Position numbers and translations under genes: made by a program. Shown in pieces: positions 61,876 through 64,000 of a stretch of 64,000 bases of DNA (position 1 is its first letter; every line of letters begins with the position of its first letter). Source of the stretch: Flavobacteriales bacterium (GTDB lineage Bacteria; Bacteroidota; Bacteroidia; Flavobacteriales_E; Vicingaceae). The stretch spans positions 4,715 to 68,714 of the forward strand of contig JAGQZT010000107.1 of assembly GCA_020435335.1 (NCBI GenBank), read 5' to 3'. The notes beneath the pieces are model-generated. The model did not search any database. It saw only the letters and a list, made by a program, of their open reading frames with translations, and was not told where the DNA came from.

Positions 61876-61883
61876 TATATTTG
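61876..61883 (+). promoter_or_regulatory. -7 promoter box TATATTTG for the SIR2-like gene
   Basis: TAnnTTTG match 17 nt upstream of ATG 61900, inside the 63-bp divergent intergenic region. Confidence 0.5.
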
Positions 61884-61899
61884 ATGAAAACCATCGAAA

Positions 61900-62913
61900 A
61901 TGGCAAACATCACATACTATATTGGAGCAGGCGCAAGTTGTAATTCTCTTCCTCTAGCAAAGGATATGCATCAAAGATTAATTGAATTCAAAGAGTATAT
62001 TATTTACTTAATTGATGAGAAAGGACTGAATAATCATTTTTCCAATTCTTACTTAACGGAACTTGATAAAATAATTCGACTTGTGTTTGAAAATGGAACC
62101 ATTGACACCTGTGCTAGGACAATGTACCTAAATGGAAGACAATCAATGGATTTAGTAAGGTTAAAGTCAATATTAAGTGGATATATCTTGTTTGAACAAA
62201 CAAGAAAAGACGAAGGATTTTTAACGAATAAAGACTCTGGGAAACAAGATCACCACAATAGAGTGATCGATCAAAGATATCCTGCGTTTATTACAAATCA
62301 AATTGATGGAAATTCAAGAAAACTGAAAGATAATATTAAAATCATATCTTGGAATTATGATTCCCAGTTCGAGCTATCTTATTCCAATGTTGTAGGTTGT
62401 CCCATTGATATGGCTCTCAATCAACTCAACGTATATCCTTCTCCATATACAAATACTGATGAAAATTATAGCATCATTAAGTTGAATGGAACAGCAGGAC
62501 TGACAGATGAACACAACAGAGTTTCGGCTGAATACTTAAGCATACTCGAATTTGATCCACTATCATCCATGAATTTCATTATCGATCTTCTTAAATCAAA
62601 TAACCAGAGAAATTACGTACCAAATCAATTGTTTTTTGCTTGGGAAGATTATCACATCCCAAAGAATTCGAAAGAATTAGCAAAAAAGATTATTTCGGAA
62701 ACAGATATTCTTATCGCAATAGGCTATTCATTTCCAGATTATAACCTTGAAGTGGATAGGTATATTTTTGATGGAAATAGGATTGAAAAAATGTATTATC
62801 AAGTTCCACCCCAATATTTTGAGGATTTAAAGCTAAATATTGCCAAAGTAAATAGTGATTTGTTACAAGTGTGCGAAAATATTTCCAGACCCGAGTTTTT
62901 AATACTGAGTTAA
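61900..62913 (+). CDS. SIR2-like / AbiH-like (DHS-like NAD-binding fold) protein
   Basis: Motifs are YIGAGASCNSLPL (GAGxS), IISWNYD (TNYD-like, N152), IIKLNGT at the position of the KLHG catalytic His (N196), and ILIAIGYSFPDYNLEVDRYIF (the GYS..D motif). Confidence 0.6.
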   Translation: MANITYYIGAGASCNSLPLAKDMHQRLIEFKEYIIYLIDEKGLNNHFSNSYLTELDKIIRLVFENGTIDTCARTMYLNGRQSMDLVRLKSILSGYILFEQTRKDEGFLTNKDSGKQDHHNRVIDQRYPAFITNQIDGNSRKLKDNIKIISWNYDSQFELSYSNVVGCPIDMALNQLNVYPSPYTNTDENYSIIKLNGTAGLTDEHNRVSAEYLSILEFDPLSSMNFIIDLLKSNNQRNYVPNQLFFAWEDYHIPKNSKELAKKIISETDILIAIGYSFPDYNLEVDRYIFDGNRIEKMYYQVPPQYFEDLKLNIAKVNSDLLQVCENISRPEFLILS

Positions 62914-63989: not shown

Positions 63990-64000
63990 ATTTAGATTTG

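Follow-up and report, generated by a model that had tools for sequence, protein, structure and literature searches.

The histidine of the HG motif has long been treated as universal in Sir2 domains, and the locus described here raises the question of what a SIR2-like protein does when asparagine stands in its place. Near the end of the window (the whole 64,000-nt stretch of Flavobacteriales DNA that was analysed) lies a gene for a 337-residue protein, here called P0001. A first-pass annotation had read N152, in a WNYD motif, as the counterpart of the conserved Asn of the SIR2 motif TNYD, and had pointed to N196, within the segment IIKLNGT 44 residues C-terminal of N152, as occupying the place of the catalytic His of KLHG. 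Translation of the open reading frame bears out the AAT codon at 62485–62487, both residue numbers and the spacing. Three explanations had been offered: a catalytically altered enzyme, a non-enzymatic NAD- or nucleotide-binding sensor, and an AbiH-like clade with different chemistry.

Fold and motif equivalence

Searches with P0001 alone gave no match in Pfam (E ≤ 1), NCBIfam, PHROGs or the PDB sequences, nor did a profile of its family match any PDB sequence, and the generic SIR2 model of PADLOC matched P0001 over only 24 residues around GYSFP (E 0.0013). AlphaFold2, given a 55-sequence alignment, nonetheless predicted a structure with a pLDDT of 90.4 and a pTM of 0.91, for which Foldseek found in the PDB the SIR2 subunit of E. 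coli SIR2-HerA (E 2e-6), ThsA (6lhx), human FAM118B and the classical sirtuins, with a probability of 1.00. The prediction and the structural search agree with the annotation's claim of a SIR2/DHS-like fold, and on this model we regard it as settled that P0001 is a sirtuin-type Rossmann protein. A Foldseek search of BFVD for a viral counterpart returned nothing at E ≤ 0.001.

To place the motifs, we used a reference set of 30 genuine PF13289 (SIR2_2) domains from genomes of the same phylum, 27 of which carry the N-x-D...H-G pair and were aligned. One of them (L001) is an authentic ThsA, matching 6lhx at E 1e-143, and its Asn and His are each displaced by a single residue from N112 and H152 as published. 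When the P0001 family profile was compared with these 27 domains by hhalign, the probability was 98.1% in global mode (E 8e-13) and 96.9% in local mode (E 1e-10), with IISWNYDsQfE paired with i-TTNyD-l-E, IiKLNGTA with l-KlHG, and VIGYSFP with fiGYS. The WNYD of the family thus aligns with the TTNYD of ThsA-like SIR2_2 domains, and N196 falls on the column of the catalytic His, just as the by-eye alignment of the annotation had it.

Matches to PF13289 itself are weak and were obtained for 23 of the 55 relatives; scanned singly against its gathering threshold of 24.5 bits, P0064 reached 25.4 bits, just above the cut-off, and P0029 stayed below it at 21 bits. By profile–profile comparison only, P0001 may be assigned to SIR2_2 (SIRim) at the level of the superfamily: the fold and the order of the GAGxS, (T)TNxD and GYS..D motifs are those of the group, whereas the catalytic His is absent and the Pfam threshold is not reached. 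One relative bears the UniRef name 'SIR2-like domain-containing protein'. Traits of the classical sirtuin deacylases, the Cys4 zinc module and the catalytic His, were looked for as well: the family has no conserved Cys or His column, and neither P0001 nor its 55 relatives matched PF02146.

The gene, its motifs and a divergent neighbour are listed in Table 1. The sequence TAnnTTTG is the −7 promoter consensus of Bacteroidota. Relative to other SIR2_2 domains, P0001 has family-specific inserts at about residues 20–135 and 200–245, and the motif that follows the second of these, F246-A-W-E249, may be equivalent to the T-x-E-x-Y segment of ThsA, a pairing judged by eye only. At N65 (62092–62094), four residues N-terminal of D69, half of the family has His.

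Table 1. Features of the P0001 gene and its surroundings, in window coordinates; conservation refers to the 238 aligned homologues.
Feature	Position	Strand	Basis
Stand-alone SIR2_2-like protein P0001, 337 aa	61900–62913	+	Open reading frame and translation
TATATTTG, putative −7 promoter box	61876–61883	+	Matches TAnnTTTG; 16 nt 5′ of the ATG; read from the sequence
G9-A-G-A-S13, GAGxS dinucleotide-binding loop	61924–61938	+	97% of homologues, remainder gaps; aligned with SIR2_2 GaG.S
D69, near-invariant family-specific Asp in a helical insert	62104–62106	+	235/238, other three are gaps
D124-x-R126-Y127, family-specific invariant motif preceding the strand that leads to WNYD	62269–62280	+	D 98%, R 100%, Y 99%
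W151-N152-Y153-D154, equivalent of the (T)TNxD nicotinamide-pocket motif	62350–62361	+	W and D 238/238; N and Y 237/238
N196-G197, NG variant of the catalytic HG motif	62485–62490	+	Codons AAT GGA; both residues 238/238
F246-A-W-E249, conserved motif after a family-specific insert	62635–62646	+	F 93%, W 92%, acidic at 249 in 94%
G275-Y-S-F-P279...N282...D286, equivalent of the GYS..D ADP-binding motif	62722–62757	+	G, Y, N282 and D286 238/238; aligned with SIR2_2 iGYS
ABC-ATPase/methyltransferase fusion, 641 aa	59911–61836	−	Matches AbiLi, AriA and PtuA models; divergent from the P0001 gene

Asparagine in place of histidine across the family

The annotation had proposed inspecting homologues for Asn at this column, and the answer is uniform: in a MAFFT alignment of 238 homologues, N196 and G197 are each present in all 238. 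The other invariant or nearly invariant residues are GAGAS, D69, D124, R126, Y127, WNYD, Q156, E158, G275YSF278, N282, D286 and Q301. A further set of genome loci was picked up by the peptide patterns WNYDxQ and IGYSFP, both of which exclude the motif site, and 75 of these 77 loci have NG. At the DNA level the Asn is encoded by AAT in 14 and by AAC in 3 of 17 loci, two of the 17 being the window's own gene, and since both codons are in use it is the amino acid that is conserved, across a synonymous change. The family alignment was also searched for another conserved His able to stand in for N196, but no conserved His column exists anywhere among the 238 homologues. Because the Asn is constant in the alignment and nearly so in the further loci, is written with either codon, comes with no conserved His and belongs to a family that is cleanly separated by its HMM (below), we take it from these sequence comparisons to be an ancient trait that selection has maintained in a discrete clade.

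That clade is sizeable. A word-indexed search recovered 110 clusters related to P0001, and an exhaustive search at E ≤ 1e-3 recovered 2,050 representatives (50% identity), 1,476 of which reach E ≤ 1e-10. Of 401 species genomes sampled from the phylum, 10 (~2%), each from a different genus, have a full-length member, and in this sample the family HMM scores members at 245–360 bits and everything else below 40 bits. Across a scan of 185,579 species genomes, relatives were found in 504, and the best 80 loci of that scan are nearly all from Bacteroidota, with strays in Leptospira, Halioglobus, Ignavibacteriaceae and Balneola. P0001 thus represents a discrete, unnamed family of single-domain proteins of ~340 residues in which NG is fixed, and which lies outside the models of Pfam, NCBIfam and PADLOC. 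Two proteins among the nearest weak matches to the HMM (L064 and L065) are of the His type, with KLHGSSNW and GYSFP.

Genomic setting

At ~59250 the GC content of the window falls from ~46% to ~32% (30–34%) and remains low to the window end at 64000. This stretch, within which the P0001 gene lies, fits a horizontally acquired island; it contains the ATPase fusion, the SIR2-like gene, an XRE repressor gene convergent with the latter, and a lipoprotein gene. We considered whether the ATPase–methyltransferase fusion and the SIR2-like gene form a conserved two-gene module, but no such fusion adjoins the family gene in 80 other loci, where the sole counterpart is one weak generic ABC-ATPase match three genes off, and the two look like independent modules within one island.

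A conserved partner of any other kind was likewise rejected. In an all-against-all clustering of 944 neighbour ORFs from the 80 loci, called by a simple longest-ORF rule that may miss small genes, no neighbour family was present in more than 6 loci, and those that recurred reflect synteny among close relatives. The 137 immediate neighbours include four integrases, three type IIG restriction enzymes and many housekeeping genes, and only a few gave strong PADLOC matches. Seven annotated contexts include McrBC with a type I restriction–modification system and a patatin, MmeI, IS91 and IS1595 transposases, and SocA_Panacea. Such surroundings are those of an accessory gene that stands alone and moves horizontally, and they are suggestive of a link to defence.

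Five related genomes of Flavobacteriaceae (L118–L121 and L110; for example L119:9108-10238) have a short-chain dehydrogenase before the family gene and a Schlafen AlbA_2 + DUF5929 protein after it, an arrangement that is probably lineage synteny and no functional pair. An authentic AbiH gene may be present in the source genome as well, as another of its contigs has a partial PF14253 match (G000:C130:44388-44681, locus L048; E 2.6e-9, profile positions 161–255) in a 145-residue open frame at the contig end.

Candidate activity and comparison with known systems

The annotation's premise that His is needed for NAD cleavage is out of date. Within the full-text literature that we searched, Asn in place of the Sir2 HG histidine is described only in the Avs5 paper (2025 preprint; Mol Cell 2026). 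PaAvs5-1, a phage-defence protein of the Avs5 (AVAST type 5) group, naturally has NG instead of HG at residues 153–154 and hydrolyses NAD+: infected cells that carry it show a ~3-fold drop in NAD+ and a rise in ADPR, and protection is abolished by N153A and N153Q and reduced by N153H (PMC12931631). Asn153 is proposed to contact the ribose hydroxyls in place of His, and across Avs5 proteins NG and HG occur at ~1:1 (PMC12931631). The annotation had also remarked that a change to CAT would restore His, but given that Asn is fixed in the clade and that His at this site works worse in PaAvs5-1, nothing selected-for would be restored.

One of the 30 PF13289 reference loci proved to be of the NG type as well. 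It encodes a 1,052-residue protein with a SIR2_2 domain and a STAND NTPase (PF25199) and the motifs TTNYD...KLNG...GYSFSD (L147:1944-5102, on G136:C1; also L021), of which PADLOC recognises the SIR2 part alone, as ThsA-like, and misses the whole. Among 120 homologues of this SIR2-STAND protein, the catalytic column holds N in 101 and H in 7, and because the SIR2 domain sits in the effector position, a dead one would make no sense there. We asked whether the P0001 family has a special kinship with this domain; hhalign aligned the two at 94% (local) and 97.5% (global), with N196 on its Asn. Because the SIR2-STAND domain scores no better than SIR2_2 at large (94% versus 97%, local), shared descent of the NG state is unsupported, and the Avs5 precedent would apply to P0001 by analogy. 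A third NG-type SIR2-like gene (L063:1428-2482, on G061:C32, minus strand) has FNFD...KLNGS...IIGYSFPAYD and a zinc-ribbon-like insert, CxxC...C..GCGG; it may be frameshifted or split, the N-terminal GAGAS part apparently lying in another frame.

Building on the fold, motif equivalence, invariance and distribution described above, we put at roughly 60% the reading that P0001 is an active NAD+-consuming SIR2_2 (SIRim) enzyme of the NG variety; NAD+ would be its substrate, hydrolysis its chemistry and defence its role. Sequence, structural model and analogy favour it because the known NAD+-binding and activating residues of sirtuins are kept, N196 is invariant, and NG hydrolyses NAD+ in Avs5. 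In such an enzyme, GAGAS and GYSFP..N..D would bind the ADP moiety of NAD+; N152 and D154 of WNYD would form the nicotinamide pocket and place the attacking water; and N196, instead of His, would hydrogen-bond the hydroxyls of the nicotinamide ribose, as proposed for Asn153 of PaAvs5-1. The outcome would be the conversion of NAD+ to ADP-ribose and nicotinamide, and we infer that the two helical inserts peculiar to the family, or oligomerisation, might gate the activity (SIR2-HerA and FAM118B form oligomers). As there is no fused sensor and no conserved partner, and as the gene is found in variable, often mobile or restriction-rich places, P0001 probably acts on its own, as an accessory effector in the manner of single-gene anti-phage or abortive-infection systems.

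An invariant amide that holds the ribose need not imply hydrolysis. P0001 might instead be an ADP-ribosyltransferase acting on a protein or nucleic acid, with D69, D124-x-R126-Y127 and Q156 forming the target site, a reading that we consider unlikely although it has a precedent in the class M sirtuins (SirTM). There, an absolutely conserved Gln137 replaces the catalytic His and is paired with Arg192, and the enzyme is a robust ADP-ribosyltransferase without deacylase activity that Q137H kills (PMC4518038). The P0001 family too combines an invariant amide, N196, with an invariant arginine, R126, which is absent from generic SIR2_2; a pairing of the two after the manner of Gln137 and Arg192 is, however, a conjecture, nothing comparable to the fixed SirTM operon with its macrodomain and GcvH-L is conserved in the 80 loci, and PaAvs5-1, the one NG-type SIR2 to have been tested, releases ADPR in free form and does not accept Gln for Asn (PMC12931631). 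It is more doubtful still that P0001 has kept the pocket and lost the chemistry, serving as a non-catalytic NAD- or nucleotide-binding pseudoenzyme, whether sensor or sponge. Asn is not automatically competent, because loss of the His kills activity in the His-type SIR2_2 enzymes tested (ThsA H152A, FAM118B H206A and KomC H146A) and because a KomC H146N variant has been deposited (PDB 9xvc, 'KomC(H146N), a SIR2-domain NADase'), an engineered change of His to Asn at the same column of a His-type enzyme, perhaps intended to trap the substrate; P0001 alone, moreover, falls under the threshold of every curated SIR2 model. A sensor, on the other hand, needs an effector, and P0001 has a single domain and no conserved neighbour in the 80 loci, while N152 and D154, which are linked to catalysis, are kept invariant or nearly so, and the constancy of Asn at the supposedly dead position is that of a working residue rather than a relic. 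NG, finally, does support catalysis in PaAvs5-1 (PMC12931631).

The AbiH-like clade fares far worse, and an abortive-infection protein of that type, with chemistry unrelated to NAD, is very improbable. The similar size, single gene and patchy distribution are suggestive of it, and a weak alignment does pair WNYD with FNYT and KLNG with IHG, setting N196 on the AbiH His; yet hhalign gave only 4.4% (E 0.009) to an AbiH profile built from 8 genome matches, as against 97–98% for SIR2_2, and PF14253 was matched by none of the 55 members, compared with the 23 that match PF13289. As for a recent inactivating mutation or sequencing error, AAT is indeed one transversion from CAT, and in a protein with no direct Pfam match an alignment by eye could have erred and left the true His elsewhere. 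The data refute both: the Asn recurs in all 238 homologues and in 75 of 77 independent loci, sometimes as AAC, three separate profile alignments put N196 on the H/N column, and the N65 column, the sole His-rich one of the family, is just 50% His, with Asn in P0001. Of the explanations first offered, then, it is the catalytically altered enzyme that is best supported.

The NG variant was already known from Avs5; what is new is a second, separate and large family, made up of single-domain proteins, in which NG is fixed and which has invariant residues of its own. It will escape annotation pipelines and defence-finders that depend on HG or PF13289. Being small and soluble-looking, P0001 would be a convenient system for learning how Asn substitutes for a general base, and it would show whether a bare SIR2 domain suffices as a complete defence system. 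There is a slim chance that NG-type SIR2 domains form a separate mechanistic class and that the P0001 family, with its own invariants D69 and D124-x-R126-Y127, does not simply hydrolyse NAD+ but attaches ADP-ribose to a macromolecule of phage or host, or turns NAD into a different product, acting as a single-protein immune effector widespread in Bacteroidota.

Among known systems, AbiH (PF14253) resembles P0001 in being a single gene of ~330 residues with a distantly similar order of N..HG..G-x-S, but it has GNGFD where P0001 has GAGAS and keeps its His. SirTM shares the replacement of the catalytic His by an invariant amide, which in SirTM contacts the ribose and where His is deleterious; it differs in that the amide is Gln rather than Asn, in belonging to another branch of the sirtuins, in modifying lipoylated GcvH-L as an ADP-ribosyltransferase, and in its fixed macrodomain operon, neither a macrodomain nor GcvH being a conserved neighbour in the 80 loci. 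The SIR2 NADases ThsA (Thoeris) and DSR1/DSR2 have the fold and, by profile–profile alignment, the motif order GAGxS, TNYD, K-L-x-G and GYS..D in common with P0001, whereas they need the His (N112 and H152 in ThsA) and have a sensor attached (a SLOG domain or, in DSR, the C-terminal region). The best structural match, and one of similar size, is the SIR2 subunit of SIR2-HerA (Nezha; PDB 8sub, 8su9 and 8sxx), with a TM score of ~0.47 and a sequence identity of 16–20%; its partner, the HerA ATPase, is encoded next door, whereas neither HerA nor another conserved partner was found at the 80 loci of the P0001 family.

Avs5 resembles P0001 in its SIR2_2-type domain with GAGxS, a TTNxD-type motif and NG ~43–44 residues past the motif Asn (PMC12931631); PaAvs5-1 was compared here through its published description, and the profile alignment is that with the SIR2-STAND family. 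Avs5 proteins are of ~1,000 residues, their SIR2 domain being fused to a STAND NTPase and, at the C-terminus, a sensor, and roughly half keep HG. P0001, with no STAND gene conserved nearby in the 80 loci, is in contrast a single domain of 337 residues without a P-loop, from a family in which NG is invariant and is accompanied by additional invariant residues.
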